The notes below the pieces were generated by a model. It was not told the origin of the DNA. It saw only the letters and a program-made list of their open reading frames with translations, and searched no databases. The position numbers and the translations under genes were made by a program. 64,000 nt of DNA from Acidimicrobiales bacterium mtb01 (GTDB taxonomy: Bacteria; Actinomycetota; Acidimicrobiia; Acidimicrobiales; Ilumatobacteraceae): assembly GCA_004379135.1 (NCBI GenBank), contig NBNI01000006.1:249160-313159 (forward strand), written 5' to 3'. Positions 22,962-42,155 of the stretch are shown here, piece after piece; the stretch's first letter is position 1, and the number at the start of each line of letters is the position of its first letter.

Positions 22962-22962
22962 A

Positions 22963-24246: not shown

Positions 24247-24345
24247 GAGGAATCAGTCCAATTCGGGGGAACGGTGTGAACCGTGACCTCATGTCTACCC
24301 GACGAAACCACGCATGCCAATGCATGCATTCGTCAAGATTCGTTC

Positions 24346-25083: not shown

Positions 25084-25088
25084 GCCGA

Positions 25089-25823: not shown

Positions 25824-25875
25824 CGATGACTTTGGTCCCTGTGAGCCCACATCCATACCCGCAAGAATGCCATCC

Positions 25876-26235: not shown

Positions 26236-26240
26236 GGGCG

Positions 26241-27080: not shown

Positions 27081-27973
27081 TGCCCGTTGCGACGCACCAC
27101 CGCGACGGTGGTGCCGAGCACGAGAGCTCCGATCACCGACACGATCACCCCTTGCAAGATGTCGTTGTCGATCGTGTCGAACACGTAGGCGCCGATGCAG
27201 ATCACGGTCAGGATGGCCCCTCCCACCACCTGCTCGATCCGCACGTATCTGACACCTGACCAGAACAGCAGCACCGCCACCGCGAGTGACGGCAGGAAAC
27301 CGAGGACTCCCCCGACGTCGCTCAGCCACACCGGCGCCGACGACACGATGGTGACCACGCCGGCCACGCGCAACAGCACCGACAAGCCGACGTGCTGCTG
27401 ACCGAGCCAGAGCACGAACGTGCCGCCTCCGACGAACAACGCCGAACTGGCCGCCCCTTGCCACGAGAAGTGCTCGACCAGACCGACTCCGATGGCCTGC
27501 AGGGAGGGCAGAAGCGCGATGGCCGCAGAGAACTTGGCCGACGGCAGCCGGATGAAGCTCCATGTCATACCGACCGCTCCGGCCACCACTGCGATCCATT
27601 CGCCATCCCAGTCGGCTTCGGTGAGGAGCAACGCACCGGCGGCCACGAACGAGCCGAGCGCGATCAACTCGAGGACTTCACCGGCGGTGGGCCGCCAGTC
27701 GCGTCCGCGAATGAACCGTTGCGCGAACCACGCGGCGACGATGAAGATGCCGTACAGAGCGACCGCGATGGAGACCTTCGATGCCTCTTCGAAGAGGGCG
27801 ATGACGAGTCGCACGAGACCGAGCGACAAGATGGCGAGCCCGAGATACGTGAGCGCCGAGCGCCACTGGATTCGGAACCGCGGGGCCTGCAGCAGCTCAT
27901 CGGCCTGATACGCGGTGATGCGGCGATCGACCACCAATTCGTGCAGAAGTTCGGGAAGTGTCTTGTCGGCCAT
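27047..27973 (-). CDS. polytopic membrane protein, function unknown
   Basis: 308 aa. After a soluble N-terminus there are about 8 hydrophobic helices. The 3' end overlaps xthA convergently by 34 nt. Confidence 0.65.
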   Translation of the reverse strand: MADKTLPELLHELVVDRRITAYQADELLQAPRFRIQWRSALTYLGLAILSLGLVRLVIALFEEASKVSIAVALYGIFIVAAWFAQRFIRGRDWRPTAGEVLELIALGSFVAAGALLLTEADWDGEWIAVVAGAVGMTWSFIRLPSAKFSAAIALLPSLQAIGVGLVEHFSWQGAASSALFVGGGTFVLWLGQQHVGLSVLLRVAGVVTIVSSAPVWLSDVGGVLGFLPSLAVAVLLFWSGVRYVRIEQVVGGAILTVICIGAYVFDTIDNDILQGVIVSVIGALVLGTTVAVVRRNGHHKRYVTTTGA

Positions 27974-28037
27974 GGCGACCTCCTCGACGGAATGGAACCA
28001 CTGGCCCGCGGCGAACGGTGCGCGGTGCGATGCATAC

Positions 28038-28055
28038 GGGACGAATGTTCGTCCC
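28038..28055 (-). terminator. short palindromic hairpin downstream of the XRE gene
   Basis: gggacgaa tg ttcgtccc, with no clear U-tract. Confidence 0.25.
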
Positions 28056-28063
28056 GAAGTCGA

Positions 28064-28432
28064 TCAGACGGCGCCGTTGGCGGCGCGATATGCGCGGTAC
28101 ACCGAGACGAGCGAATCCTTCTGCTCGTCGGTGAGCGCCGCGTCGGCCTGGATCGCGTCCTCGGTGGACGACGACACCGGTTCGCTTGCCGCGTCGTCGT
28201 CGAGCATGCCAGCATCACCCAGTAGCTCTTCGGCCGACACGTTGAGAGCCTTGGCGATCGACCGCACCACGCGAACCGACGGTTCGTGCAGACCACGTTC
28301 GATCTGGCTGAGATACGGATTCGACACCTGCGCCAGTTCGGCCAACTGGCGCAGACTCATCTGCGCGAGCTGGCGTTGGCGGCGAATGGTGGCGCCGAGG
28401 ACGCCCAGCCGATTGCTCCAGTCGTCGCTCAT
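28064..28432 (-). CDS. XRE-family HTH transcriptional regulator
   Basis: 122 aa from ATG 28432. The HTH is MSLRQLAELAQVSNPYLSQIERGLHEPSVRVVRSIAKALN. Confidence 0.85.
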   Translation of the reverse strand: MSDDWSNRLGVLGATIRRQRQLAQMSLRQLAELAQVSNPYLSQIERGLHEPSVRVVRSIAKALNVSAEELLGDAGMLDDDAASEPVSSSTEDAIQADAALTDEQKDSLVSVYRAYRAANGAV

Positions 28433-28451
28433 GACGAGGCGACGATCCGGA

Positions 28452-28802
28452 TCAAGAAGCCGGGGCGACGGTCTTGGCGATCTTGTTGGCGAACTCGATC
28501 TGCGCCTGGGCGACCTTGACGGCGAAATCGATGTTGGCCGTGATGGCCTTGCGCACGTTGGCGACGACCGGACGAGCCTTGGCCGGGGCCACGCGATCGA
28601 CGGTGGCGACGGCGCGACCGACGGCGGCGATGGTGCGCTCCTGACCCTTGGCGACACCCGTGGCCAGTGCGGCGCGGGCGACCTCGGGCTTGAGGTTGGC
28701 GGTCACCTTGCCCACGAGCACGCGCGGGTCGCGCGACGACGGGGCGGCCTCGGGGGCGGTGCCATTGGATTCGACGGTGAAGGTGGTCTTTTTCTGAGCC
28801 AT
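28452..28802 (-). CDS. small Ala/Lys/Val-rich helical protein, function unknown
   Basis: 116 aa from ATG 28802 (MAQKKTTFTVES...). It ends 19 nt upstream of the XRE gene, so the two are probably co-transcribed. Confidence 0.55.
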   Translation of the reverse strand: MAQKKTTFTVESNGTAPEAAPSSRDPRVLVGKVTANLKPEVARAALATGVAKGQERTIAAVGRAVATVDRVAPAKARPVVANVRKAITANIDFAVKVAQAQIEFANKIAKTVAPAS

Positions 28803-28874: not shown

Positions 28875-29411
28875 TCAACTGCGTCCGGTTCGCAGCCGAT
28901 CGACTCTCGGCTCACGGTCGCCCACGATCCGAGCCAATCGATTCGACGCCACGGCACGGTCCAGACTCCCCGACTCGGCCATGGCGTCGATGTCGACCCA
29001 GTCCTTGGGGCGGTCGAACAGCGCCTTGAACACAGCCAGATCCTCGGCGCAGAGGATCGTCACCGACCGACCGGCGAACGGAACCTGACGACACCGCTCG
29101 CCCACGTCGTGGTGGAAGTCGCTGGCGACGAAGAACAGGTCGATCGGCGTGTCGTCCCACATCAACCGCACTTGATCGCTCGTCAGAACTTCGTGTCGAC
29201 TCTCATGTCCGACCACCACACCTTCGGGAAGTGCGTTGAACACCACATCAACCGCCGAGGCTCGGACGAAGACGTTCACATCGATGTCGCGCGTACCGCG
29301 CGGCTCGGCCGTGGCGTAAGCCAACGCGAAGGCTCCACCGAATGCCCACGGCACGTCGGCACGATCGAATGCCTCGGCGACCGCCAGGATCTTGTCGACG
29401 AGAGTCGTCAC
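28875..29411 (-). CDS. nucleotidyltransferase-fold protein (AbiEii/MNT-like putative toxin)
   Basis: About 178 aa. The NTase signature is WAFGGAFALAYATAEPRGTRDIDVNVFV. GTG 29411 overlaps the upstream stop as GTGA; the track start, TTG 29414, is in frame. Confidence 0.7.
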   Translation of the reverse strand: MTTLVDKILAVAEAFDRADVPWAFGGAFALAYATAEPRGTRDIDVNVFVRASAVDVVFNALPEGVVVGHESRHEVLTSDQVRLMWDDTPIDLFFVASDFHHDVGERCRQVPFAGRSVTILCAEDLAVFKALFDRPKDWVDIDAMAESGSLDRAVASNRLARIVGDREPRVDRLRTGRS

Positions 29412-29695
29412 CAACGAGCCTCGGCCAGCGGGCGTGGTTGATACGGCAGAGCTTCAGCCAGGTGGAGCACCTGCTCGAGTCGATGGCCCAGCAACCACGG
29501 GTCGCCCACCCGATCGAATCGGATCTCGTAGCCGATTGCCGACACGATTCGTCCCGCAACCTCCAACGAGGGTTGACGGCGTTCGCACTCATATGCGCTG
29601 ACGACCGTCGACGGGATCCCGACCCGCCGGGCGACCTCGGCCTGCGTCAGACCGGCTCGCACCCGCAGATCCCGAAGAGTCCGACCTCGAAACAT
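29408..29695 (-). CDS. XRE-family HTH protein (putative cognate antitoxin)
   Basis: 95 aa from ATG 29695. The HTH is LRVRAGLTQAEVARRVGIPSTVVSAYECERRQPS. Confidence 0.75.
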   Translation of the reverse strand: MFRGRTLRDLRVRAGLTQAEVARRVGIPSTVVSAYECERRQPSLEVAGRIVSAIGYEIRFDRVGDPWLLGHRLEQVLHLAEALPYQPRPLAEARW

Positions 29696-29764
29696 GACGT
29701 CAGGATACTGAATATGAGCGTTTCCGCTTAGTTCACGCTCCTCCCAAATCGCGAACCGTCCCAG

Positions 29765-29808
29765 AAATGTTTCGAGGGCCAGCCTCACGGCTGACCCTCG
29801 AAACATTT
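29765..29808 (-). terminator. long hairpin abutting the att core; probably the ancestral terminator of the tRNA gene, displaced by the island
   Basis: A perfect 14-bp stem (aaatgtttcgaggg / ccctcgaaacattt) plus an inner 5-bp stem (cagcc / ggctg). It starts directly after the duplicated tRNA 3' end. Confidence 0.55.
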
Positions 29809-29824
29809 GGTGGCGGGGAGGGGA
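29807..29824. repeat. attL-type direct repeat (18 bp, TTGGTGGCGGGGAGGGGA)
   Basis: Identical to 42078-42095, which is the 3' end of the tRNA gene. Confidence 0.85.
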
Positions 29825-29864
29825 ACCGTCGCTCCGTTCCTCCCAAATCCGCAGAGCCGCGATC

Positions 29865-29904
29865 AAAATGGAAATGCCGCCCCGAAGGGCGGCATTTCCA
29901 TTTT
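29865..29904. terminator. perfect 18-bp hairpin with a 4-nt loop at the island's left end (bidirectional-terminator-like)
   Basis: aaaatggaaatgccgccc cgaa gggcggcatttccatttt. The A-tract and T-tract are part of the arms. Confidence 0.6.
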
Positions 29905-29967
29905 GGTGGGGTATGCACCGAAGTCGGAAGCCCAGCGTGGGGGCGGGTTCCGGGTCGGTGTGGCGGG

Positions 29968-30001
29968 GATTTCTAACTGAAAATCGACAGATTTCTAACT
30001 G
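29968..30001. repeat. two copies of the 12-bp direct repeat gatttctaactg with 22-bp phasing
   Basis: Copies lie at 29968-29979 and 29990-30001. This is an A/T-rich spot between attL and the first island gene, and a candidate recombinase arm site or regulator site. Confidence 0.6.
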
Positions 30002-30036
30002 CGAGCCGGCGGAGCGTCTGACCGTCGGTTGGTCCC

Positions 30037-30771
30037 TTACTTGTATAGCCCCCGGGCACGGCTGATGGCTTCTCGCCGGATTCGGCTGCGCAGGGCGGGT
30101 TCCTCGAGTGCCTTCTGTCTCGTGGAGTTGATGTCGTCTTCACGCAGCCATTGCAGACAGCTGCCGGCTGCGACGGCCGAATTCCCGCCAGCCCCGATCG
30201 CGGTCTCGACCCAGTTCTCGATGATCTCGATCTCTGCGTCCGCGCTCTCGATGGTGGTCGCGAAGTCGAACACAGGAATGTTCGTACGCGTCAGGTAATG
30301 AGTGAGCCGCTGGAGTGTGAGAGCGATGCCGAAGAGCTCCATCGACGCGATGCGCTTCGCCGGGGCGAGAGATTCCGCATCGACTACCGCGAGCACGTCG
30401 AAGTCGGCTTCCCAGCATTCGACTCTTTCGTCGTCTGGGGTGCCTGTCGGTGGCTGGAGTTCCGGCAGGACCATTTTGTTGAAGTGCCGATCGGTCGGCC
30501 AGATGTTTCGCTTGCTCCCCTTGTTGACCACCGCGACCAGGATCCCGTTGCGCGTGTTGAGGCCGTCGGGGCGCATCGTGCAGGGATGTTGTAAAACGAT
30601 GAAGGTTCGTTCCTCAGGGTTCTGCACCTTGGTGGTGACGTTGATCGCCGCCCGAAAGACGTCACCTGTGGTCACCGGACGATGCAACGGCGTTTCCTCA
30701 CCTCGCCCACGCCAGATCTGCGCGGCCCAGCTGCTGGCCGGGCCCTCGGGGGCATCGAGGTCGACGGGCAT
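30037..30771 (-). CDS. island orphan protein C (244 aa), function unknown
   Basis: Last gene of the three-gene operon, starting 9 nt after the upstream stop. No motif I recognise. The N-terminal half is beta-rich (TTGDVFRAA...FIVLQHPCTMR...ILVAVVNK). Confidence 0.7.
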   Translation of the reverse strand: MPVDLDAPEGPASSWAAQIWRGRGEETPLHRPVTTGDVFRAAINVTTKVQNPEERTFIVLQHPCTMRPDGLNTRNGILVAVVNKGSKRNIWPTDRHFNKMVLPELQPPTGTPDDERVECWEADFDVLAVVDAESLAPAKRIASMELFGIALTLQRLTHYLTRTNIPVFDFATTIESADAEIEIIENWVETAIGAGGNSAVAAGSCLQWLREDDINSTRQKALEEPALRSRIRREAISRARGLYK

Positions 30772-30780
30772 CGTTGCGGG

Positions 30781-31464
30781 TCAGTCCCGGTCGTTGGTGT
30801 CTTTGGAGACGATGGACAGGACACCGTCCGACGCGCGGACAACTTTGAAGTCGCTCCGGTACTTCTCGCGCCAGTTCGGTTCGAACTCCGTGAGGGCATC
30901 CTCGGGTGAGATGTGCGTCGAGACCAGCTCGAGCGCGAGGTCCTCACGGTTGCCGGCAATCAGATCGATGCTCGTCAACGGGCATCCGGTGACGATCGGC
31001 ATCTCCGCCCACGCTGCCGGGTCGACGGTCAGGTGGGTGTCGCTCATCTGTTCGAACAGCGCGTTCAACAACGCGAGGCGTTTGCGGTTCTCTCCCGTGG
31101 CCGGTTCGCCTTTGCGCCACTTTTGAACCGCCGGCACCGAGACCCGCGACATTCTCGCGATGTCTCGCCAAGAGAACCCGAGGTCACTCAGCCGCGAGAG
31201 AAGTTCGGTGACCGCCAATCCCTGCAGCGCCTGGGCGGCTTCGTCAAGGCTTCGTCGACCGAGAACACGATGAACCTCAGTGGCGTCGCTTGCAAGGAAC
31301 GACACCTGACTGCGGATGAGCGCCGCTTTGCCGCTGAGCTCATAGTAAGAGGTCTGCGTCGTCGAGATCGACGGCGCCGGACTGACCTCGAGTGCGCCGG
31401 TCGGCTCGTCAACATCCGTGACAACCCCCGAACCAGCGGTCTTCACCATCGAGTACACACTCAT
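30781..31464 (-). CDS. island multidomain HTH protein B (227 aa)
   Basis: ATG 31464 has GGGGGAGG 6-7 nt upstream and overlaps the upstream stop as ATGA. The central HTH is FSWRDIARMSRVSVPAVQKWRKGE. The flanking N- and C-terminal domains are unassigned. Confidence 0.75.
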   Translation of the reverse strand: MSVYSMVKTAGSGVVTDVDEPTGALEVSPAPSISTTQTSYYELSGKAALIRSQVSFLASDATEVHRVLGRRSLDEAAQALQGLAVTELLSRLSDLGFSWRDIARMSRVSVPAVQKWRKGEPATGENRKRLALLNALFEQMSDTHLTVDPAAWAEMPIVTGCPLTSIDLIAGNREDLALELVSTHISPEDALTEFEPNWREKYRSDFKVVRASDGVLSIVSKDTNDRD

Positions 31465-32252
31465 TCGAACCTCCCCCGCATTGCTTCCCGCATCCGTGGC
31501 GTGACCAGTTTCTCGAACATCTCCGTCAACGGCCGGTGCAGCACGTCGACTTTCTCCAGGACCGCGCCAGCCGAGTACTCCGGAACGTGACCCTCGGCCA
31601 CCCAGTAACTGTCGAAGTCCAGCAGGAAACACTCCGGGTTCGCCGGAAGGTTCACACGCCGCAAAGCCCCGTTCGGATCGACCGCAGGAGCCTCCCTCGG
31701 CCCGTAACGGAGAACCACCGAAGTGCCCTCAGGCGTCACGAACTGTGTCAAGCCTTGCCAGGCAGTCGCAGTGATGTCGTCGATCCCCAGACCCGACGGT
31801 CCGATCAGTTCCGGCACCACCCACTCCCGCCAATCCGTCGAACTGGACGTGACCGCCGGGCGGATCTCGTCGATGAAGCGCAAACCGACCCTCTCAACAC
31901 CACCCGGCGCCAGAACCGTCTCGACCACCGCGACCGCCCGTTCGACCAGCGCCCGGAAACGCTCGTAGCCGGCGTAAGCCGTCGTCTCGACAATCGCCCT
32001 GTCCGGCCAGAAGCTCACACTCGTTGTCTTCTCCCGGTTCCTGAGACGCAGGATCTCGACCGGCTCGACGTGCTGCTGACCACCAGGACCGAGATCTAGA
32101 CGCTGCAGCACCTCGGTCGACCCCAACGGCAGGACATCCTTGAGTTCCGTCCGGAGCCGCCGGAACCCCTCGGCACCCTGGTCAGCGAGCGGAAACCTGA
32201 TCTCACACACAACCAGCGCCAACGGCGCGTTCGGGTAGACCTCGCTGCTCAT
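31461..32252 (-). CDS. island protein A (263 aa), TIGR04255-like uncharacterised family (assigned from memory)
   Basis: ATG 32252. The N-terminus is MSSEVYPNAPLALVVCEIRF, followed by VGLRFIDEI. The longer track ORF (to 32546) overlaps the divergent gene and is rejected. Confidence 0.7.
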   Translation of the reverse strand: MSSEVYPNAPLALVVCEIRFPLADQGAEGFRRLRTELKDVLPLGSTEVLQRLDLGPGGQQHVEPVEILRLRNREKTTSVSFWPDRAIVETTAYAGYERFRALVERAVAVVETVLAPGGVERVGLRFIDEIRPAVTSSSTDWREWVVPELIGPSGLGIDDITATAWQGLTQFVTPEGTSVVLRYGPREAPAVDPNGALRRVNLPANPECFLLDFDSYWVAEGHVPEYSAGAVLEKVDVLHRPLTEMFEKLVTPRMREAMRGRFE

Positions 32253-32402
32253 ACCGCCATCATAGGGCCCGGGAGCAACAACCAAAACAGCAACCACGAC
32301 GGAAACTGTCCGGGTGCTGACCCAAGGGGCAAGCGACCGGTAGAAACCGGACCGGTTCAGCCTTTCGTTGCGGCGACCCTCCATCCCGGGACGATCCCGC
32401 GT

Positions 32403-32705
32403 ATGACACCCCTGGAAAACCCGGTCGGCGTGAGTCAGTTCCTCGACAGCTTTGCGGCCGCATTGGAGGACGGTCTCGGCGTCCCCGCCGCTTTCGCCAA
32501 CGCCGCCTCGGCCAACGGCTTCGACCACACCACGATCGAAGCGCATCTCACGCTCCGGTCGCTCGACGGAAAGCTCACCTGCTCCTCATTGCTCGACGGG
32601 CTGGTCAGCGACGAAATACTCACGGTCATCCGCACCGGAGAGAAGCAGGCAGACGTGATCGGTCACCTCCGTCTCGCCGCGGTCAACGCGCTCCCCGGCA
32701 CCTGA
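32403..32705 (+). CDS. island hypothetical protein (100 aa)
   Basis: ATG start with strong third-position G/C bias in this frame. It is divergent from the three-gene operon. No motif I recognise. Confidence 0.55.
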   Translation: MTPLENPVGVSQFLDSFAAALEDGLGVPAAFANAASANGFDHTTIEAHLTLRSLDGKLTCSSLLDGLVSDEILTVIRTGEKQADVIGHLRLAAVNALPGT

Positions 32706-32882
32706 TCAACTCATCCGCGTCAAAACTCCGGTGCAACCCGGAACTCCGCAGTATCCCTCCGGTTCCTCGAGCATCCTGCCGATACACCTCTCGGTTCGGC
32801 ATCCTCGATTGCCGCAGGACCGGACGTTGCAGCGAAACACGTGCCGAGAGTTGCACTCGGGGCACTTCTCGTCAGTCACCAT
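32706..32882 (-). CDS. 58-aa Cys-rich (8 Cys) zinc-ribbon-like protein, absent from the ORF track
   Basis: My own translation: MVTDEKCPECNSRHVFRCNVRSCGNRGCRTERCIGRMLEEPEGYCGVPGCTGVLTRMS. ATG is the complement of 32880-32882 and TGA the complement of 32706-32708. Third-position G/C is about three quarters by eye. It lies 56 nt downstream of the 197-aa gene. Confidence 0.5.
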   Translation of the reverse strand: MVTDEKCPECNSRHVFRCNVRSCGNRGCRTERCIGRMLEEPEGYCGVPGCTGVLTRMS

Positions 32883-32938
32883 CAGTTCAGATTACTGCGC
32901 CGTCGCGGTGAGCCAGATCAGGTCATCCTCAATCCCGA

Positions 32939-33532
32939 CTACTGATCTAGTGGTGTAAGTGTCCCATGCCGGTCACGGTGCCAGGCCCGGTTGGCACTGT
33001 CGGTGAACCGGACAGCGAGGAGCAACCGGCTGACCGCCAGTTCTGACAGTTCGACTGCGGATACGTAGGAGAACAAGGTGTGGCCCGCCTGCTCCTCAGG
33101 CACGTCAGCGACGTCGAGCACTCGTTCAGGTTCGAGTTTGCAGACCGCAACCTCGCTCGGAGCGACGACCGGTCGCATCGTCGTAAGGATCAGCACGTCA
33201 CCTTTGAACCACTCCAGCTGGACCTTGTAGATCGGCTGGCTGGAACGATTCGCGATCAAGCCGTTGACCGAGACGTTCGTGTACATCCACGCGGACCCGG
33301 CGCCGTCCTTACGTTCAGGTTTGACAACCGCCGGCTCTGCCCACGCAGCGACCTGTGATGCCTGGAGAGCGCGAGTCTCTGCTTCGTGGCGCTCGTCGCG
33401 TTTGCGTTCGATCTCGACGATGTCCCGGGCCCAGCGCCCCGCGAGAACTGCAGCGATGACAGCTGCGACTGTCGCGACGGCCGTGAGCCACGTCGCCACG
33501 TCCCCGTATTGAACACCGTCAAACGACATCAC
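32939..33532 (-). CDS. island membrane-anchored protein (197 aa), function unknown
   Basis: One N-terminal TM helix (VATWLTAVATVAAVIAAVLAG), a charged helix, then a beta-rich domain. Confidence 0.65.
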   Translation of the reverse strand: MMSFDGVQYGDVATWLTAVATVAAVIAAVLAGRWARDIVEIERKRDERHEAETRALQASQVAAWAEPAVVKPERKDGAGSAWMYTNVSVNGLIANRSSQPIYKVQLEWFKGDVLILTTMRPVVAPSEVAVCKLEPERVLDVADVPEEQAGHTLFSYVSAVELSELAVSRLLLAVRFTDSANRAWHRDRHGTLTPLDQ

Positions 33533-33559
33533 GATGGCGATCGTATTTCACGGGTGTGT

Positions 33560-33814
33560 ATGCAATCTGGAGACACCTCGTCACAGTGGCGGGTCCCGTC
33601 CACCGACCGAAAGGCCCACCTGTTGCAACCACCCTCCCCGGACCCGTACCTCACGATGAAGGAAGTTCTCGCCGTGGTCGGAGTCTCACGTTCGACGTTC
33701 TCCAAGTGGCGCAGCGAAGGTCGAGCTCCCGAGATGATCCGCCTTCCCAATGGGGAGCTGCGAATCCGTCTGAGTGTGCTCGAGGCGTGGTTCGATTCTC
33801 TACCTGACGCCTGA
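33560..33814 (+). CDS. excisionase/AlpA-type HTH protein
   Basis: YLTMKEVLAVVGVSRSTFSKWRSEGRAPEMIRLPNGELRIRLSVLEAWF matches the Xis/MerR-type HTH_17 pattern. The start is uncertain (ATG 33560, TTG 33623 or ATG 33656). Confidence 0.7.
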   Translation: MQSGDTSSQWRVPSTDRKAHLLQPPSPDPYLTMKEVLAVVGVSRSTFSKWRSEGRAPEMIRLPNGELRIRLSVLEAWFDSLPDA

Positions 33815-33822
33815 TCGGCCGG

Positions 33823-36144
33823 TTACGCCGCGTCGACGTAGAGCAGTTGCTGGAAACCGCAGAACACTTGGCGGACCTCTGACGCATCGGCGCCGAGCAC
33901 GCCGAGCGCTTCCGCGACCCCTCCGTACTTGATCTCAAGTAGCGGAGGGAGTTTCTCGACCGCGAGCTCCTCGACTCCTTCGCTGACGTACTGGTCAAGC
34001 ACGAACTCGATGAAGTCGCGTTGACGTTCCCCGAACTGTACCCCGATCCGCCGGCGAGCTTTTGTAGCGCGGGACTCGCGAGTTCGCGGTGCCGAGTTGA
34101 AACTGATGTAGGCGAGCACGTCGTAGAGGTCGCTGTCGCGTGCCGAGATCAGTTCCTGGACCTTCTCGAGGTTCTCGACTCCGAAGCCTTTCTCGCCGAG
34201 TTTTGATAACAGCTCGATCCGAGTCAGTGGGTCTCCCCAGATGCGGCGAAGGTCGTCCTCGTCCTTGTAGAACTGCGGAAGTTCCCCGAACAGCCACTTG
34301 AGGAACTCCTCGGCGCTCATCTGCTTGCCGTCAGGTCCCCAGAACGTTGTCTTCATCATAAAGTCGATCTCCCGGCTCGATCCTCCGAGCTCTATGCGGA
34401 TCTTCTTCGGTCGTTCCGGTCCCGGTCCGACCGGCTTGCCCGGTGTCGGGTTGCCGTTCCCGTTGCCGGGTTTCGGTGTCGCCGGTACGGGTTCCTCCGG
34501 TGGACCATCCCATTCCGGGTCGTTGAACATCTCGTGGGCCTTCACGAAATCGTAGATCGTGAAGTAGTCCTTGCCGTCGAAGAGTCGCGTCCCTCGACCG
34601 ATGATCTGCTTGAACTCCACCATCGAAGTGATCGGGCGGAGCAGCACGATGTTGCGCACGTTGAGCGCGTCGACACCGGTCGAGAGTTTCTGCGAGGTCG
34701 TCAGGATCGTCGGGATGCTCTTCTCGTTGTCCTGGAAGTTCCTCAGATGCTGGTCACCCAGGTCGCCATCGTCGGCGGTGACGCGCTGGCAGTAGTTCGG
34801 GTCCTTGCTCGTCTTGATCTGGTTGATCAGGTCCCGCACCAGCAGCGCGTGTTCCTGGGTCGCGCAGAACACCAGCGTCTTCTCGTCCTGGTTGATCAGG
34901 CCCATAAAGATCTCGACGCGTCGACGTTCGCGCGCCACGATCTCGATGCGCTTGTTGAAGTCCGGCTCCCCGTAGGTGCGGCCCTCCTCGATGTCACCGG
35001 CGAGCACCTGGTCGCCCGGAGTGAACGTGTACTCGTCGAGCGTTGTCGAGATCTGGCGCACCCGGAACGGGGTGAGGTACCCGTCGTTGATCCCTTCCTT
35101 CAGTGAGTACGTGTACACCGGCTCACCGAAGTACTTGTAGGTGTCGGCGTTCTCGGTGCGCTTCGGTGTCGCCGTCAAACCGACCTGTACCGCCGGTTCG
35201 AAGTACTCGAGGATCCCGCGCCACTCGCTCTCGTCGTTCGCGCCGCCGCGGTGGCACTCGTCGACGATGATCAGATCGAAGAAGTCCTTCGGGTACTGCC
35301 CGAAGTTCGGCGCCGGGTTCCCATCCGCATCGGTGCCGGACATAAATGTCTGGAAGATCGTGAAGAAGATGCTCCCGTTCGTCGGGACCGACCCTTTCTT
35401 ACTCACGTCCCCGGGGCGGATCCGCACCAGTGCATCGTCGTCGAACGCCGAGAACGAGTTGTACGCCTGGTTCGCGAGGATGTTGCGGTCCGCGAGAAAC
35501 AGGATGCGCGGCCGGCGCTGCTTGTCACCCTGGATGTTCCACTTCGACTGAAAGAGCTTCCACGCCGTCTGGAACGCGATGAACGTCTTGCCGGTTCCGG
35601 TCGCGAGCGTCAGAAGGACACGCTTGTCGCCTTTCGCGATCGCACCGAGGACTCGTTCGACCGCGATGTCCTGGTAGTAGCGACCGCCGAACGTGCCGTT
35701 GCGCGACTCGAACGGCACATCCGTCAGTTCGTGCTCAAGCGTGCTCCCCGCCTCGAACGTCCGCCGCCACAGGTCATCCGGCCCCGGGAACGACGCGATC
35801 TCGCCTTCGGTTCCCTCCTCCATATCGACCTCGTAGAAACCCAGACCGTTCGTCGCGTAGGTGAACCGCACCGAGAGTTTCTCCGCGTACTCCTTGGCCT
35901 GCCCAAGACCTTCCGTCAGCGGCTTGCTCTCCGCTTTCGCCTCGATCACTGCGAGCTTGCGGTTGCGGTAGTAGAGGACGTAGTCCGCGATCAGCTGCTT
36001 CTGCGGACGTCCCACTCCTTCGATGCGCCCCGGTGCGATCACGTACTCGCGGGTCACCCGCGAATGCTCGACCTTCCCCCAGCCGGCAGCGACCAGCGCC
36101 GGGTCGATCAGATCGCCCCGAGTGTCTGCTTCGTTGCGCGCCAC
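33823..36144 (-). CDS. hsdR: type I restriction enzyme R subunit
   Basis: 773 aa. The HSDR_N-like nuclease N-terminus is EADTRGDLIDPALVAAGW...VIEAKA. Helicase motifs are LATGTGKTF and IIVDECHRG (DEAH), with an EcoEI-R-like C-terminus. The GTG start overlaps the hsdS stop by 1 nt. Confidence 0.93.
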   Translation of the reverse strand: MARNEADTRGDLIDPALVAAGWGKVEHSRVTREYVIAPGRIEGVGRPQKQLIADYVLYYRNRKLAVIEAKAESKPLTEGLGQAKEYAEKLSVRFTYATNGLGFYEVDMEEGTEGEIASFPGPDDLWRRTFEAGSTLEHELTDVPFESRNGTFGGRYYQDIAVERVLGAIAKGDKRVLLTLATGTGKTFIAFQTAWKLFQSKWNIQGDKQRRPRILFLADRNILANQAYNSFSAFDDDALVRIRPGDVSKKGSVPTNGSIFFTIFQTFMSGTDADGNPAPNFGQYPKDFFDLIIVDECHRGGANDESEWRGILEYFEPAVQVGLTATPKRTENADTYKYFGEPVYTYSLKEGINDGYLTPFRVRQISTTLDEYTFTPGDQVLAGDIEEGRTYGEPDFNKRIEIVARERRRVEIFMGLINQDEKTLVFCATQEHALLVRDLINQIKTSKDPNYCQRVTADDGDLGDQHLRNFQDNEKSIPTILTTSQKLSTGVDALNVRNIVLLRPITSMVEFKQIIGRGTRLFDGKDYFTIYDFVKAHEMFNDPEWDGPPEEPVPATPKPGNGNGNPTPGKPVGPGPERPKKIRIELGGSSREIDFMMKTTFWGPDGKQMSAEEFLKWLFGELPQFYKDEDDLRRIWGDPLTRIELLSKLGEKGFGVENLEKVQELISARDSDLYDVLAYISFNSAPRTRESRATKARRRIGVQFGERQRDFIEFVLDQYVSEGVEELAVEKLPPLLEIKYGGVAEALGVLGADASEVRQVFCGFQQLLYVDAA

Positions 36145-37316
36145 TAGAGCTCACCTCGGAATGCCGCCTCAAGAACCGACTGGCGTAGTTCAGATAACAG
36201 CTTCAAACGTCTTGCAACGTTCATTCTGAGTCGATGGACCTGCTCCTCTAGCGTCCGTACCCGGGAAGCAAAGCGTTCCTGGACGTCCCTTGGTGGCACC
36301 GGGATTGACACGCCTGCCACCAATGCGGAATTCAGGTTCTGGACGGTAGAGCCTTGAGCTCGCAGGCTGAACTCCGAGTACATCGTTGTCGAACCCAGCA
36401 AGTAGTAGAGATAGTCCTGATCAAAACGAGAGTTCTTGTCTTGAAGAACGAGCCAACCGTCGTGAATGCATCCGTCTGTCTGCATTATGTAGGGGCGACC
36501 AAAGCTCATCGAGTTTGACAAGAGGAAGTCTCCCGGACCGACTTTCCGTGACCGTTTCACTCCCGCCGGCTTGATCTTCTCAGAAGTCTCATAGATGTAC
36601 TTCCGGCTCGCGCTTGCGTCACCGATCTTCACCCAGTTGACGCCGTCCGCGTCGTCAGTAATGTACTCAGAGATGGGCCGAGGTGACCCTCCCCGAGCCA
36701 CTTCCAGAACGTCTCCAATGAGTTTCTCCTCATAGCGCTCACTCAGATCACGGATGGCAGCTGACACTTCGCTATCAAGTGCCTCGCTCGCCCGGAGCTC
36801 TGCTGAACGGTAAGTGCGTTCAAGACAGTCGGCCCTTTCGAGGAGTTGATCAAGTTTCGCTGCAATGCGCTTCTGTTCGGTAAGAGACGGAACAGGGATC
36901 TCGAACTCACGAAGTGCTTGAGGGCTGATTCGCGGGAGAGTTGCGCCGGTGGATTTCTCGGTGGCCTCCGAGATAACCCTTGGGCTACGAAGCCAGTGGA
37001 AGAGGTAGTCACGGTCTAGTTCAGTGGACGGGGCAACGGTGATGATGTCGGTGCTACACACTCCAGGGTGAGTGGGCCGGGCGACCTTGGCGAGATATGG
37101 GCGGAGTTTGCCAAACAGAACGTGTGTCGTATCGAACCGATACTTGTTGCTTCGCAGATCTGTTGCAGCGACGGCCCCGAGATTGATCAGCGCGCCGTCA
37201 CTTCCGATGTTCTCGAGACCGACGTAGACGTCTGATTCACGCAGTTGCTCAGGACGTACCGACTCACCGTCAATGTTCGCCACCTCGCCAAGCTTCTTGA
37301 TTGGTGTACTGCTCAC
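36144..37316 (-). CDS. hsdS: type I restriction-modification specificity subunit
   Basis: 390 aa from GTG 37316, which overlaps the hsdM TGA as GTGA. It has two target-recognition domains. The conserved spacers are PVPSLTEQKRIAAKLDQLL and IPVPPRDVQERFASRV. This is the most A/T-rich stretch of the window. The 671-aa track ORF is an artefactual extension. Confidence 0.9.
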   Translation of the reverse strand: MSSTPIKKLGEVANIDGESVRPEQLRESDVYVGLENIGSDGALINLGAVAATDLRSNKYRFDTTHVLFGKLRPYLAKVARPTHPGVCSTDIITVAPSTELDRDYLFHWLRSPRVISEATEKSTGATLPRISPQALREFEIPVPSLTEQKRIAAKLDQLLERADCLERTYRSAELRASEALDSEVSAAIRDLSERYEEKLIGDVLEVARGGSPRPISEYITDDADGVNWVKIGDASASRKYIYETSEKIKPAGVKRSRKVGPGDFLLSNSMSFGRPYIMQTDGCIHDGWLVLQDKNSRFDQDYLYYLLGSTTMYSEFSLRAQGSTVQNLNSALVAGVSIPVPPRDVQERFASRVRTLEEQVHRLRMNVARRLKLLSELRQSVLEAAFRGEL

Positions 37317-38824
37317 GACAGCAGACCCTTGATGTTCGCTATGAGTGCTGCTGCTTCTGCGTCGAGAGATTCGAGTTCGGCGAGGATCTCCGCAGGTGTG
37401 CCGAGCTGTTTGGGGCCTTCGGCGTTGGGGTTGCGCACAGTGAGGTCCCAGGTTTTCGGGTCGACGTCCTTGATGTCGACGGTCCAGGAGTTCGGTCCGT
37501 CGGTCTTGGTTTTCGAGAGCGAGACGAACTCCGCGAGGTCGTCGTCGTTGAGTGGGCTGGTCTTGCCGAAGTTCCGTCCCGGGTTGAGCTGGTAGTACCA
37601 GATCTTCTTGGTCGCGGTGCCTTTCTCGAAGAAGAGAACGATCGTGCGCACGCCGGCACCTTGGAAGGTGCCCCCGGGGAGGTCGAGGATGGTGTATAGG
37701 TTGCAGCTTGTCAGCAAGTGCTTTCGCAGTTCGACCGAAGCGTTGTCGGTGTTGGACAGGAAGGTGTTCTTGATGACCACGCCGGCGCGGCCCTTGACCT
37801 TCAAGATCTTGATGAAGTGTTGCAGGAACAGGTACGCGGTCTCGGATGACTTGATCGGGAAGTTCTGCTGCACTTCCCCGCGTTCCTTGCCGCCGAACGG
37901 CGGGTTCGCCAGGATGACGTTGTGGCGGTCTTTCTCTTGGATCTCGTCGATGTTCTGCGCGAGCGTGTTGGTGTGCAGGACGTTCGGTGCGTCGATGCCG
38001 TGCAGGATCATATTCATCACCGCGATGACGTACGCGAGTGACTTCTTCTCCCGGCCGTAGAACGTCTTCTCCTGCAGAGTCTTGAGGTTCGATGTAGTGA
38101 GCCCGGTCTTGGCCGAGAGATGTTCGAAGGCTTCGCAGAGAAAGCCTGCCGACCCGCACGCCCCGTCGTAGATCGTCTCGCCGATCTGGGGGTCGACGAC
38201 GTCGATGATCGCGCGGATCAACGGGCGTGGTGTGTAGTACTCGCCGCCGTTGCGTCCGGCGTTGCCCATATTCTTGATCTTGACTTCGTAAAGGTCCGAC
38301 AGTTCGTGCTTCTGGACCTGCGACTTGAAGGTGAGCTTGTCGAGCTCGTTGATGACGTCACGCAGGTTGTAGCCGGAGCTGATGCGGTTGCGGATCTCGT
38401 CGAAGATCTCGCCGATCTTGTACTCGATGGTGTTGCTCGCTGCGGCGCGCTGCTTGAAGCCGCGCAGGTATGGGAAGAGTTTGTCGTTGACGAAATCGAG
38501 TAAGTCAGGTCCGGTCTGCTGCTTGTGGTGGTCCGGGCTACCGTCGGTCTTGCGTGGTGCTGCCCAAGTCGTCCAGCGGTACGCCGGTTCGAGGATGTGT
38601 TCGTACTTCTTGCCGGTGAGTGCCGCTTCCTGCGCGCGTGATTCCTCGAGTGCGTCGAGGTACTTGAGAAAGAGCAGCCACGAGGACTGTTCGGTGTAGT
38701 CGAGTTCCGAGGTGCAGCCGGCGTCCTTGTGCAGGATGTCGTCGACGTTCTTGAAGACCTGCTGGTAGCCGTTCGTCGCTACCTTCGCGATGGTTGTCTT
38801 CGATGTCGTTGTCTTGGCCGCCAT
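37313..38824 (-). CDS. hsdM: type I restriction-modification N6-adenine DNA methyltransferase subunit
   Basis: 503 aa. HsdM_N is present. AdoMet motif I is YDGACGSAGFL and motif IV is ILANPPFGG. AAGGAG lies 7 nt upstream. Confidence 0.93.
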   Translation of the reverse strand: MAAKTTTSKTTIAKVATNGYQQVFKNVDDILHKDAGCTSELDYTEQSSWLLFLKYLDALEESRAQEAALTGKKYEHILEPAYRWTTWAAPRKTDGSPDHHKQQTGPDLLDFVNDKLFPYLRGFKQRAAASNTIEYKIGEIFDEIRNRISSGYNLRDVINELDKLTFKSQVQKHELSDLYEVKIKNMGNAGRNGGEYYTPRPLIRAIIDVVDPQIGETIYDGACGSAGFLCEAFEHLSAKTGLTTSNLKTLQEKTFYGREKKSLAYVIAVMNMILHGIDAPNVLHTNTLAQNIDEIQEKDRHNVILANPPFGGKERGEVQQNFPIKSSETAYLFLQHFIKILKVKGRAGVVIKNTFLSNTDNASVELRKHLLTSCNLYTILDLPGGTFQGAGVRTIVLFFEKGTATKKIWYYQLNPGRNFGKTSPLNDDDLAEFVSLSKTKTDGPNSWTVDIKDVDPKTWDLTVRNPNAEGPKQLGTPAEILAELESLDAEAAALIANIKGLLS

Positions 38825-38982
38825 TGGTCTGCTCCTTTTGGGAGCACTGTTCCGCGGCCGCCGCTTGCGGCATTTGTCCCCGTCTCTGGCTCCGATCGGC
38901 GTTCGACAACCCGGCTCGTACCGGGACGTTTCTGCGCCTTGCGAAAGCCTATGACTCGGGTGAGACAGGGTGTGTTTCTCTT

Positions 38983-39333
38983 CTAAGACAGTGTGAGTTT
39001 CAGCTCGGCACCGTCATCAAACACCGGGATGATCTGGACGCCGAGTTCTACCGCCCATTTCATTGCGTCACCGATGTCGATCGGGGTCTGGCCGTGGAGT
39101 TTGCGGGTCAGCCAGGCCGGGTCCTCCCCGATCCGATCCGCCAGGTCGGCAGTGGTCTCGCCAGCGGCGCGGAGTTCGAGCATCACCGCCACCGCGGCCC
39201 GGTGCTGAAAGATCGCCCACGCGGTTTCGGTTGGGTCGAGCGGGCAGGGGTCTGCCCATTGTGGGGTTGGGATTCGCCCGAAATGGCGGGGGTTCGCACA
39301 GATTCGGGCGGGTTTGAACCTCGGCTTTCCCAC
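38983..39333 (-). CDS. small XRE/Cro-like HTH protein upstream of hsdM (start uncertain)
   Basis: The HTH-like stretch is AVAVMLELRAAGETTADLADRIGEDPAWLTRKLHGQTPIDIGDAMKWAVELG. The N-terminal part of track ORF 38983..39444 runs through an A/T-rich promoter-like region, so I chose an internal GTG. Confidence 0.5.
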   Translation of the reverse strand: MGKPRFKPARICANPRHFGRIPTPQWADPCPLDPTETAWAIFQHRAAVAVMLELRAAGETTADLADRIGEDPAWLTRKLHGQTPIDIGDAMKWAVELGVQIIPVFDDGAELKLTLS

Positions 39334-39336
39334 CCA

Positions 39337-39366
39337 TTGATAATGGCATACCAACAGGTGTATTTT
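39337..39366 (+). promoter_or_regulatory. candidate promoter for the recombinase/transposase-like gene pair
   Basis: TTGATA, an 18-nt spacer, then TATTTT. It sits in a locally A/T-rich divergent intergenic region. Confidence 0.3.
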
Positions 39367-39376
39367 ACGCCTTTTC

Positions 39377-40378
39377 TTGCTATCTTCGAGTGCTCGTGAA
39401 TGCCCTGTGGGCACCTTGACCGGAGTGACCGCCGCCGACACCACCTCGACGTTCTCAGCCTCGACCTCTCAGCCGACCGATCCCGGATGCTCGCCGGGAT
39501 ATGTCGGGATTGTCGCGACGTACGACCCGCGGAAGTCGAAGTTTGCGCTCTGCGCCCCAGCGGAGTGGGAGGTCGTCGCCCCGGTGGTCCGCGCCACGGT
39601 CGCCAGGTTGGAGGGTTTCGCGGATCGTGGGCTCCGGCCGTATCTCACCGCGATGACCCGGCTCTCGGTCTGGGCTCTCCGGGAGGGCCTCCCTCTCGTG
39701 CCGGCGTCTCTTCTCTCTGATCCGGTAATCGAGGCGCACGTCGCGACCCTTGATGCGAATGCCGGGACTTTCCGTTCGCAGTTGCGGCGTCTCGCGGCCG
39801 CGAACGGTGTGGCACTCGGGTCGACCGCTGTCGGTTACGCCCGGCCCGGTTACTCCGCTCCGTACACGCTCGACGAGGTGCGTGCGCTGCTGTTGTTCGC
39901 ATCGTCACTCACAAATGAGATCCGTCGTCGGCAGCTCACCGGTCTGCTGCTTCTCGGCGCGGCGTGCGGTTTCTCCCGTGCTGATCTCCGGGGAGTATGC
40001 AATGGCGACGTGCATCATCACAGTGGTGTCCGTTATGTGCGGACCCGGAATCGTTGCACCCCGATCCTCGAGGATTTCTCCGCTGACTTCGATGCGTATC
40101 TGTCGTGGTGTGGGGATGAACCGTTTGTCGGGGTGAAGCCCGGCGCGAACATCACCGACCGGATGGTTTCCTGGGTCGGTGAGCGTGCCGGTCTGCCGCG
40201 ACTCTCTGCCGACCGGCTGCGGGCGTTCTTCGTTGTCGAGCATCTGCGTCGCAACACGCCGCTTCCCTCGCTGCTCGCATACTGCGGTTTCGCAAGCCTT
40301 GAGGCGCTTGACCCTTATCTCGCGTTTCTTCCCGCGTCGACCCCACTTTGCGGGTCTTGTGAGGAAGGTTCGCTGTGA
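39377..40378 (+). CDS. degenerate tyrosine-recombinase-like protein
   Basis: 333 aa. The layout is recombinase-like: LLLGAACGFSRADL (Arg I), ADRLRAFFVVEHL in place of HxLRH, and CGFASLEALDPYL (candidate Tyr). Both His positions appear substituted. The start is uncertain (TTG 39377 or downstream GTGs). Confidence 0.5.
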   Translation: MLSSSARECPVGTLTGVTAADTTSTFSASTSQPTDPGCSPGYVGIVATYDPRKSKFALCAPAEWEVVAPVVRATVARLEGFADRGLRPYLTAMTRLSVWALREGLPLVPASLLSDPVIEAHVATLDANAGTFRSQLRRLAAANGVALGSTAVGYARPGYSAPYTLDEVRALLLFASSLTNEIRRRQLTGLLLLGAACGFSRADLRGVCNGDVHHHSGVRYVRTRNRCTPILEDFSADFDAYLSWCGDEPFVGVKPGANITDRMVSWVGERAGLPRLSADRLRAFFVVEHLRRNTPLPSLLAYCGFASLEALDPYLAFLPASTPLCGSCEEGSL

Positions 40379-41868
40379 ACACGGCTGACGTCAGGCGCGC
40401 AGAGCGCATCATCGACGCTTCCGGTCTCGTTGCGATGATCGAGACGCGGATTGCCGCGACTAGGCGGGTCTCTGGTCGTCCCCGCGAACTCTCGGTGCGA
40501 ACGCTTCTGGTTGCGCTGCTGCTGTTGTCCCAGTCCGGTTCGATGCATCTGATTCGTGTCCCGGGGATACTCAACGCTCTCGATCTGCCGACGCGCAAGC
40601 GGCTCGGAGTCGTTCGTACAGGTGGTGTCACCCGCCGCCAGGTTGAGCGCCTCTTCAACTTGGTCGCGCACGCTCTCGAGGGTTCGGCTCACGCGCATTT
40701 CGATTCCTTCTGTGATCTCTTGCTGCAGGCCACGATCGATCCGGCGTGCGCGGAGACGAGTTCGATCGCTGTTGACGGAACGAGCGTCGATTCCTGGGGA
40801 CGTCGCCGGCGGCGCGTCGACGTTGCGGGCCAGGTCTCTTGGGTGTCTTCGGATACCGATGCAGAGTGGCGTCGCAAGAGCAAAGACAACCCGTGGAAGC
40901 GTCCGGTGTTCGGCTACGACCTCACCGTCGCGGTGACCGTTCCTGAAATTGACGGCCCTGATGTGCCGCTTGCCGCGCGTTCGATGCGCTTCCGCGGCGC
41001 GAACCGTCAGAACGTCGCGATGGGGCGCGCGGTCGTGAAGGAAGTTGCCCGTCAGCAGGGTGTGCTCGGTGATGTGATCGCGGACCGCGAGTACACCTCG
41101 ACGATCGATGGGCGTGACTTCGTGCTCCCGGTTCGTGCCCTCGGTGGTGAGCCGGTGTTCGAACTGACACAAGCCCAGCTCGGTGCGCGTGGCACCACGC
41201 ACGGCGCGGTGATGATCGACGGTCATCCGTTCTCTCCGTCGGTGCCGCCGGCGCTGCAGCTGCTCACACCGCCGCCGCCGGGTGCGCCGTGGGCAGATGT
41301 TGCTGCGTACCAGCAGAAGGTCGCAACGCGCGAGAAGTACGCGCTCGTCCCGCACGGTGCTCGCAAAGCGAACGGCTCGCAGGTGTTCCAATGTCCGGCT
41401 TCGGCTGGGAAGCTCTCGTGTCCGTTGGTTGCCTCCTCAAAAGCCAGTGCGTTCCCGGCGGTGCTCGCCCCCGCGAGTGCAGCACCTGGCTCGGTGTGCG
41501 CCAAGAAGTTCACGACTTTCCAAGCAACCGATGCGCCGCTCTCGCAGCGCGACTTGTTCGGATCCGCGAAGTGGTATGCGTCGATGTCACGGCGCTCGCG
41601 TGTCGAAGGGTTCTTCGGGAACGTCAAGAACGAGGCGTGCGAGAACCTTCGTCGCGGCACGATTCGTGTGCGTGGTCTCGTGAAGACCGGGATGCTTGTT
41701 GCGTTCGCAGTCGCGAGCACCAACCTGCGTCTCGCGGACTCCTTCGCGAAGCGCACACCGAACACGCCGGCGAAGAAACGTGGCCGTCCGAAGAAGACCG
41801 GTGTCGTCAAATACGCCGACGTCTTCACCGCGGACGCTGCCGCGAACGCCCCGCCGTCTGCCGCCTGA
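40375..41868 (+). CDS. IS4-superfamily DDE (YREK-motif) transposase-like protein
   Basis: 497 aa. GTG 40375 overlaps the upstream stop as GTGA, with GAGGAAGG 7 nt upstream. Candidate catalytic residues lie in AVDGTSVDSWG and FGYDLTVAV. The C-terminal YREK-like block is WYASMSRRSRVEGFFGNVKN...RGL. Confidence 0.65.
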   Translation: MNTADVRRAERIIDASGLVAMIETRIAATRRVSGRPRELSVRTLLVALLLLSQSGSMHLIRVPGILNALDLPTRKRLGVVRTGGVTRRQVERLFNLVAHALEGSAHAHFDSFCDLLLQATIDPACAETSSIAVDGTSVDSWGRRRRRVDVAGQVSWVSSDTDAEWRRKSKDNPWKRPVFGYDLTVAVTVPEIDGPDVPLAARSMRFRGANRQNVAMGRAVVKEVARQQGVLGDVIADREYTSTIDGRDFVLPVRALGGEPVFELTQAQLGARGTTHGAVMIDGHPFSPSVPPALQLLTPPPPGAPWADVAAYQQKVATREKYALVPHGARKANGSQVFQCPASAGKLSCPLVASSKASAFPAVLAPASAAPGSVCAKKFTTFQATDAPLSQRDLFGSAKWYASMSRRSRVEGFFGNVKNEACENLRRGTIRVRGLVKTGMLVAFAVASTNLRLADSFAKRTPNTPAKKRGRPKKTGVVKYADVFTADAAANAPPSAA

Positions 41869-41936
41869 CTCGCACCGCACTCTGATGCGCGCTCGAGGTT
41901 CTCCTCGCACGCCCTGACACTGATCACACCGCACCT

Positions 41937-41959
41937 CGGCCGCCTTCGGGCGGCCGTTT
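41937..41959 (+). terminator. intrinsic terminator after the transposase-like gene
   Basis: cggccgcc ttcg ggcggccg, followed by ttt. Confidence 0.55.
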
Positions 41960-42006
41960 CGCATCCACCGGACGGTCCGTTGCGACAAGGCGACCTCGAG
42001 AAAGCA

Positions 42007-42042
42007 GAAGTCCCGGTTGCTGTTTCCAGAAACCGGGACTTC
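42007..42042. terminator. 12+3-bp hairpin 36 nt from the tRNA 3' end (island-borne replacement terminator or att-proximal structure)
   Basis: gaagtcccggtt g ctg tttc cag a aaccgggacttc. On the minus strand it is followed by tgctttctc. Confidence 0.45.
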
Positions 42043-42078
42043 GGTGCTCGATGCACACCCACTTGGGTGCACACCTCT

Positions 42079-42155
<77 letters not shown>

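Follow-up and report, generated by a model that had tools for sequence, protein, structure and literature searches.

A probable site-specific DDE transposon with a recombinase-fold partner at the initiator tRNA gene of Acidimicrobiales bacterium mtb01

Islands next to transfer RNA (tRNA) genes are routinely ascribed to tyrosine or serine integrases and bounded by the longest direct repeat of the tRNA end. The 64,000-nt stretch of contig NBNI01000006.1 of Acidimicrobiales bacterium mtb01 (GCA_004379135.1) analysed here, referred to as the window and used for all coordinates without a contig prefix, carries such an island at its initiator tRNA-Met gene, which raises the question of where the island ends and which enzyme placed it there. 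For this locus the usual rule appears to give both the wrong boundary and the wrong enzyme. The island is probably a 12,168-bp site-specific transposon, in which a DDE (Asp-Asp-Glu) transposase is the engine and a protein of tyrosine-recombinase fold the target selector, and which belongs to an actinobacterial family that homes to the 3' ends of tRNA and transfer-messenger RNA (tmRNA) genes.

Ends of the element and the uninterrupted site

The element was delimited at 29910-42077 (12,168 bp) because homology among related elements, terminal inverted repeats and a short direct repeat meet there. Homology among four elements begins exactly at GGTATGCACC (29910) although their left flanks are of three kinds: the native one in the window and L014, another gene in L050 and, in the tail of L050, a different element's right end. 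On the right side the homology extends to ..GGTGCACACC-TC at 42077, ending ..ACC(T/C)C before the tRNA end. Locus L014 has the left flank of the window (hairpin B, see below, and TTTTGGTGG) and its ends, with different cargo. The preliminary description of this DNA had instead drawn a 12.25-kb island between two copies of an 18-bp repeat, the left of which lies outside the conserved ends.

The left terminal inverted repeat (IRL; GGTATGCACCGAAGTCGG, forward strand, 29910-29927) has the core TGCACCGAAGT, and the right terminal inverted repeat (IRR; CCCACTTGGGTGCACACC, reverse strand) occupies 42058-42075, with two further nucleotides, TC, that complete the element to 42077; this end is conserved in L014, L050 and L053. 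Compared in inverted orientation, IRL and IRR match at 15 of 18 bases. Their weight derives from their positions, which are the limits of homology, together with their conservation and their covariation between subfamilies. The two ends match at 13 of 13 positions in G422 (TCACGAAAGTCGG), in G194 (CAAATACAGAAGT) and in G225 (CCAGCTAACGAAA), each with its own sequence; the end sequence in G198 is GGTGTT(A/T)ACGAAA.., and the end core of the window (GCACCGAAGTC) matches an inner copy in the right end at 11 of 11.

A 7-bp direct repeat, TTGGTGG, which is read as the target-site duplication, abuts IRL at 29903-29909, an arrangement alike in L014. Its right copy (42078-42084) covers one nucleotide past CCA, CCA itself, A73, C72 and C71 of the tRNA. 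The corresponding repeats are GTGGTGG in G422, GTGGCGG in G198 and TGTGAG(C/G) at the element next to tRNA-Gly. The register of the repeat, which takes in two bases of the acceptor stem and the five beyond it, is constant at the fMet, Ile and Ser genes and holds at Gly with 6 of 7 bases matching. Exactly 9 nt lie between elements stacked in tandem, made up of two bases borne by the element and the 7-mer. The orientation is fixed, and the tRNA stays intact because the right end of the element lies five bases beyond the acceptor stem.

Relatives with uninterrupted sites bear out the earlier proposal that a mobile island was inserted at the 3' end of the initiator tRNA gene. When 29910-42084 was deleted by script, the joined flanks aligned colinearly with uninterrupted loci (G023, L079, L128 and G008), the common order being a tRNA 3'-end-like fragment, (A/G)CCGTCGCT(T/C)CG(C/T)TCCTCCCAAATC, about 15 nt, a hairpin and the tRNA. 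Synteny between the window and G023 covers both flanks, at 17301-28739 to the left and from 42070 to the right. The empty site that had been predicted in relatives, with the tRNA directly followed by a terminator hairpin, thus exists. The hairpin at 29765-29808 (hairpin A, reverse strand; -38.8 kcal/mol, z = -9.1), which had been taken for the tRNA's displaced terminator, is real but is not the one displaced here; it is an older terminator-like hairpin of the next unit out, and its homologues directly follow the tRNA in G008, G012 and G023. The displaced structure is hairpin B (29865-29904, reverse strand; -35.6 kcal/mol, z = -7.4), whose 19-bp stem runs into UUUU on the tRNA strand; B-like hairpins stand directly against the tRNA in L079 and L128. 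Hairpin B is the intrinsic terminator that followed the tRNA before the transposon was inserted.

The 18-bp repeat itself is perfect, as had been described. The sequence TTGGTGGCGGGGAGGGGA occurs exactly twice, at 29807-29824 and 42078-42095, with no further copy in the window at up to 2 mismatches (chance expectation for extra copies, 0), and it is found only at those two positions in the whole 2.55-Mb genome. The proposal that the two copies are the attachment sites of the island did not hold. The left copy is a copy of the tRNA 3' end inside a pre-existing repeat unit of about 100 bp; it lies about 85 bp from the element and outside it. This fragment, whole or partial, is seen at the uninterrupted sites of G023, L079, L128 and G008, and the complete 18-mer is present in G023 without any island. 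Since island-free relatives carry the unit with the left copy, the 18-mer is older than the transposon. The preliminary description had allowed for an 18-mer unrelated to integration, and this is what was found in a modified sense: the repeat is real but, judging from the alignments, was not produced by this insertion, its left copy being part of the older unit downstream of the tRNA.

The tRNA-Met(CAT) gene at 42079-42155 (reverse strand; ARAGORN), which the right 18-mer overlaps, is intact. With its CAU anticodon it combines an unpaired C1/C72, A11:U24 and three consecutive G-C pairs in the lower anticodon stem, as read from the sequence and the ARAGORN drawing. These three marks are missing from both remaining CAT tRNAs in the genome, so this is the sole initiator tRNA, in agreement with its earlier identification as such.

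The transposase, its partner and their family

The gene closest to the tRNA within the element encodes a Tn5-like DDE transposase of 497 aa (40375-41868, forward strand), whose start overlaps the stop of the preceding gene, the two forming a translationally coupled pair. Residues D134, D237 (in GDVxxDReY) and E411 are invariant in 24 homologues with identity down to 32%. The R(3)E(6)K part of the Y-(2)-R-(3)-E-(6)-K signature is also present, with R407 and K418 each kept in at least 90% of the 24 sequences; the match was scored for R, E and K. The DDE triad, with K or R at the last position of the signature, was found in seven of eight family loci, the eighth being frameshifted. The four best-scoring PDB structures for the AlphaFold model (predicted local distance difference test, pLDDT, 86.3; predicted template modelling score, pTM, 0.83) are all Tn5 transposase, over ~500 columns with E = 8e-5. 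The residues and the fold of the model confirm the transposase-like gene noticed earlier.

The preceding gene (39407-40378, forward strand; 323/333 aa) encodes a protein of tyrosine-recombinase fold. No Pfam, NCBIfam or PHROG family matched it and its detectable homologue clusters number only 19. Its model (pLDDT 82.5) matches Cre, XerA, XerH, Tn1549 Int and IntI over ~300 columns and in both domains, so that the earlier label of recombinase-like is supported by the predicted fold and not by any sequence family. The positions of Lys, His-II and His/Trp-III read R216, D269 and F295; the assignment of catalytic residues is inferred from motif alignment. Among the six non-fMet subfamilies, Arg-I is lost in five, Tyr in five and both in four (G225, G214, G198 and the Gly element of G000); Tyr only is lost in G422 and Arg only in L054. 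Wherever the transposase frame of these subfamilies is full-length, its DDE triad is intact, and the elements with degenerate partners keep the common end architecture. The loss of partner residues in several subfamilies, set against the retained triad, makes the transposase the likely catalyst and the partner the likely selector.

Canonical integrases were not detected in the island, either by Pfam, NCBIfam and PHROG searches of all plausible island open reading frames (ORFs) or by a six-frame search of the whole genome with PF00589, which gave 7 matches, none of them in the island (C2:278966-291237). Pfam and NCBIfam scans found no TnsA, TnsB, TnsC or TniQ domain in any ORF of the element.

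The same pair recurs in contigs from other samples as genes for ~300-345 aa and 477-508 aa proteins; a conserved non-coding stretch of ~210 nt then separates it from the 3' end of tRNA-fMet or tRNA-Ser. Of 401 genomes of the class Acidimicrobiia, 17 gave a transposase match in a profile search. At about 20 of 22 distinct loci it is convergent with the 3' end of a tRNA or tmRNA gene 190-320 bp away, and the recombinase-fold gene lies directly upstream of it in every locus with enough sequence. The targets, which number at least ten tRNA/tmRNA genes, are Met, Ile, Ser(GGA, TGA), Leu(TAA, CAG), Val, Gly, Arg and tmRNA. The cargo varies by contig and includes type I restriction-modification, an N6_N4 methylase with a helicase, an Eco57I-like enzyme and FtsK/HerA-like proteins. 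A full-text search of the literature returned no description of this gene pair at tRNA ends.

A second, diverged pair is present in the same genome outside the window, at tRNA-Gly(CCC) (C2:377466-380471). The transposon there (G000:C2:368276-380659, ~12.4 kb) encodes a partner without Arg-I and Tyr, its DDE transposase frame is open over 663 aa, its inverted ends contain GTGCAC and its direct repeat is TGTGAG(C/G). At L047 (G225:C7:60000-79999), at least three family copies are stacked downstream of tmRNA, the nearest transposase gene being split between frames.

Mechanism and alternative readings

The Tn5-fold transposase would cut out and insert the element, while the recombinase-fold partner would bind the end of the tRNA gene and direct the transposase there in one orientation. 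Recognition of the tRNA gene end by the partner would explain both the single orientation and the exact register. DDE transposition is the most likely chemistry of integration, in place of the recombination between attachment (att) sites that the preliminary description had assumed, for which the island offers no canonical integrase. In the subfamily of the window the partner may have a residual or additional catalytic role, for example in excision or resolution. That the elements form a minimal two-protein homing system, in which a Tn5-like transposase is steered by a co-opted tyrosine recombinase and subfamilies have been retargeted among at least ten tRNA/tmRNA genes, is a broader proposition on which the balance is even.

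Several observations weigh against transposition by the DDE protein. Taken by itself, an 18-nt inverted repeat at 83% carries no statistical significance in 12 kb: a generic inverted-repeat search across the island returned 136 chance-level pairs without singling out the ends, and was set aside as a means of finding them. The length of the direct repeat is ambiguous, being 7 bp or, with one mismatch, 9 bp, and a 7-bp repeat between inverted sites also resembles the overlap regions of tyrosine recombinases. Tn5 itself makes a 9-bp target duplication. The transposase falls below the Pfam and NCBIfam thresholds (DDE_Tnp_1_6, 23.4 bits against a cut-off of 25.1; IS1182, 20.9 against 270). Lastly, R191, R272 and Y304 of the partner are invariant in the 16 members of the fMet subfamily, at the places expected of Arg-I, Arg-II and the nucleophilic Tyr, so the partner in this subfamily could still be catalytic.

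The last of these points also speaks for the view that the tyrosine-recombinase-fold protein is the true integrase, acting on a circular attP of the form IRR-9 nt-IRL with TTGGTGG as a 7-bp overlap, and that the DDE protein is an accessory or a passenger. The resemblance of its fold to Cre, Xer and Tn1549 Int fits that view, as do the fixed orientation, the 7-bp repeat between inverted sites and the existence of IRR-TCTTGGTGG-IRL junctions. These junctions connect two different elements, however, and not the ends of one circle, and the tRNA side of the target is unlike the end sites of the element. Sister subfamilies built alike lack Tyr, Arg-I or both (Ile G422, Ser G198, Gly G000, G214 and tmRNA G225), and the Tyr-less G422 has inverted repeats that match perfectly over 13 bp, along with a 10-bp repeat. 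With R, D and F at the usual Lys, His-II and His-III positions, and with the DDE triad in every full-length copy examined, the partner is unlikely to be the integrase. The locus could alternatively be a decayed composite, an immobile transposon remnant in which cargo was swapped by homologous recombination between resident elements. The site, flank and TT/TC mismatch that L014 shares with the window, combined with different cargo, suggest one old insertion followed by cargo swapping, and the match of the inverted repeats at only 15 of 18 positions is in keeping with decay. Both genes are intact, though, with catalytic or structural residues conserved, stacked copies occur, and the spread of the family over 17 of 401 genomes and at least ten tRNA/tmRNA genes requires repeated movement, all of which renders a mere remnant quite improbable. 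The original picture of a 12.25-kb island (29825-42077), integrated by att-site recombination with the 18-bp repeat as attL and attR, is the least credible and is considered highly improbable. It drew on a perfect, genome-unique pair covering the tRNA 3' end in the manner of classical att identity blocks, and on a hairpin that abuts the left copy. Against it, the left 18-mer, the motif that follows and hairpin B are present island-free in G023, and in part in L079, L128 and G008; identical unit arrays stand at tRNA-SeC (selenocysteine) and tRNA-Gly(TCC) with nothing inserted; the conserved ends begin 85 bp further right; and a canonical integrase is missing from the island.

A DDE transposon with a recombinase-fold selector has partial counterparts among characterised systems. 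TnsD is the target selector in Tn7-like elements. Likewise, TnsF of Tn6022, a tyrosine-recombinase-derived protein, selects the target for a DDE transposon, a role that has experimental support (Faure et al. 2023, PMC10293859). Tn6022-type Tn7-like elements with TnsF (PMC10293859) share with the present one a DDE transposon in one orientation at one conserved site, a recombinase-derived protein and cargo. They differ in that the element described here lacks TnsA, TnsB, TnsC and TniQ, its transposase is Tn5/IS4-like and not of the TnsB type (Mu-like), its target is a tRNA end and not comM, and its repeat is 7 bp instead of 5 bp. Unlike TnsF, the partner has a plain two-domain fold of ~320 aa without zinc fingers, and keeps Arg, Arg and Tyr in this subfamily.

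Tn5/IS50 and the IS4 family have in common with the element the DDE triad and YREK signature, the Tn5 fold, terminal inverted repeats of ~18-19 bp and a short target duplication. By contrast, the element has an obligatory second gene, strict site and orientation specificity at tRNA/tmRNA 3' ends, a 7-bp repeat rather than 9 bp, a transposase sequence below the Pfam/NCBIfam thresholds and ~9 kb of cargo inside a single transposon, not between two insertion-sequence copies. Classical tRNA islands and prophages with tyrosine integrases (P4-, pSAM2- and L5-type) are alike in their use of a tRNA 3' end, the intact tRNA, defence cargo, stacking and a tRNA-adjacent recombinase-fold gene. The element described here differs in having no integrase that PF00589 detects, an identity block of just 7 bp, inverted repeats at both ends, a conserved DDE transposase and a recombinase-like protein that lacks the nucleophile in sister subfamilies. 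Casposons also have terminal inverted repeats and target duplications, and some insert at tRNA 3' ends; they encode a Cas1 integrase and a polymerase B gene and make a 14-15 bp duplication, all of which are absent here.

If this mechanism is true, the element is a compact two-protein system that places large DNA at a precise, harmless and conserved site, and it represents a second, independent recruitment of the tyrosine-recombinase fold as a transposon target selector. Because the partners range from apparently intact to clearly degenerate, the subfamilies would capture that recruitment at intermediate stages. The elements are also carriers of variable anti-phage cargo in uncultured freshwater Acidimicrobiia.

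Cargo, terminal structures and tRNA-linked repeat units

The G+C content is 0.545-0.60 over hsdS/hsdM and ~0.65 in the flanks, in accord with the A/T-richer parts reported earlier. The hsdMSR genes recognised between the 18-mer copies were upheld by both domain and defence-model matches. A complete type I restriction-modification system is encoded together on the reverse strand (33823-38824), comprising the restriction subunit HsdR (33823-36144; ResIII, EcoEI_R_C and HSDR_N domains, REase_I E = 1e-138), the specificity subunit HsdS (36144-37316; Methylase_S, Specificity_I E = 3e-80) and the methyltransferase HsdM (37313-38824; N6_Mtase and HsdM_N, MTase_I E = 4e-156). Beside it, a tightly packed three-gene operon with supporting coding scores (30037-32252, reverse strand) encodes a 244-aa protein of unknown function, a helix-turn-helix (HTH) protein with a weak HTH_23 match and a TIGR04255-family protein (E = 9e-38). 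The operon matched none of the known defence models in PADLOC and is a candidate new defence module. Two orphan ORFs with supporting coding scores (32403-32705, forward strand; 32939-33532, reverse strand) had no family match in Pfam, NCBIfam or the defence models. The gene that had been called Xis-like proved to encode only a small HTH protein with weak matches to PHROG repressor families (38983-39192, reverse strand, divergent from the recombinase-like gene). A gene of ~60-116 aa occupies the corresponding position in seven of eight related contigs, and the protein is probably a regulator.

Both ends of the element contain further conserved structures. On the left, two subterminal direct repeats of GATTTCTAACTG, 22 bp apart (29968-30001, forward strand), are probable protein-binding sites, and the motif GGG(G/T)ATTTCTAA..GAAAAT is kept at the left end of the L014 element and of the two elements at L050. 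Immediately before the first of these repeats (within 29958-30001) stands GTGGCGGGGA; it has the sequence of part of the tRNA acceptor strand and may be a decoy or a binding site for the targeting protein. On the right, a hairpin, GGCCGCC-TTCG-GGCGGCC, follows the transposase gene (41938-41955, forward strand) and is present in all four aligned right ends. A second conserved hairpin (42007-42048), identified by right-end alignment and folding, includes the inner copy of the end motif (AGCACCGAAGT, 42038-42048) and probably also terminates the tRNA transcript in place of the tRNA's own terminator.

The unit that contains the left 18-mer, about 100 bp long, consists of a copy of the tRNA 3' end, a conserved 19-mer, CCGTCGCT(T/C)CG(C/T)TCCTCCC, and a hairpin. 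A variant of the motif, CCGTCGCTCCGTTCCTCCC then AAATC, lies at 29826-29849. The canonical 19-mer, CCGTCGCTTCGCTCCTCCC, adjoins tRNA-Gly(TCC), tRNA-Gly(CCC) and tRNA-SeC in this genome and tRNAs across Actinomycetota. In general, a unit repeats 15-18 nt from the 3' end of its local tRNA and adds the constant 19-mer and a 5-7 nt inverted T-loop-like copy, often with a hairpin. The loci concerned are window 29740-29909, C1:181030-181170, C2:368060-368275 and C2:427860-428013. At tRNA-SeC the tandem copies are perfect and 72 bp long, at tRNA-Gly(TCC) they are near-perfect and 69 bp long, with nothing inserted at either, and tRNA-Gly(CCC) has three copies.

In public genomes the 19-mer is matched exactly more than 120 times (scan of loci L072-L151). 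In Actinomycetota, those with a tRNA near lie just downstream of it on the opposite strand, mostly 20-125 nt from its 3' end, and most are preceded by a copy of the end of the adjoining tRNA. The hosts are Bifidobacterium, Gordonia, Nanopelagicales, Micrococcales and Acidimicrobiia, and the tRNAs are fMet, Gly, SeC, Pro and Ser. In Sphingomonas, Deinococcus and Rhodobacterales, the 19-mer is found inside repeats resembling repetitive extragenic palindromes (..CCCTCACCCTT[19-mer]TCCCTCTCCC..).

The units are possibly miniature tRNA-end elements or scars of another element family. An Rfam search for a known RNA family at E up to 1 returned tRNAs only. Miniature derivatives of the present transposon were considered and rejected, as the ~70-100-bp units have neither end sequence in common with it, and a tRNA minihelix was rejected because the constant part of the motif does not covary with acceptor stems. 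An in-register 18-bp repeat at tRNA-Gly(CCC) had suggested a long, casposon-like target duplication as the origin of the 18-bp repeat; this idea was dropped since island-free tRNAs and relatives carry the units.

The initiator tRNA gene of the relative G003 carries a different insert of 13 kb (L048, G003:C1:95000-109000), which was examined as a possible related element and found to be unrelated to that of the window. It is bounded by a 47-bp copy of the 3' part of the tRNA reaching into the anticodon arm, and its genes are CobW-like, WD40, Fe-ADH and VWA/AAA, with no recombinase among the large ORFs. Directly left of the unit array in the window, an XRE-HTH gene and a nucleotidyltransferase gene (AbiEii/DUF6036-like) form a toxin-antitoxin-like pair (28875-29695), which is missing at the syntenic loci of both G023 and G003 and so belongs to the same variable stretch.

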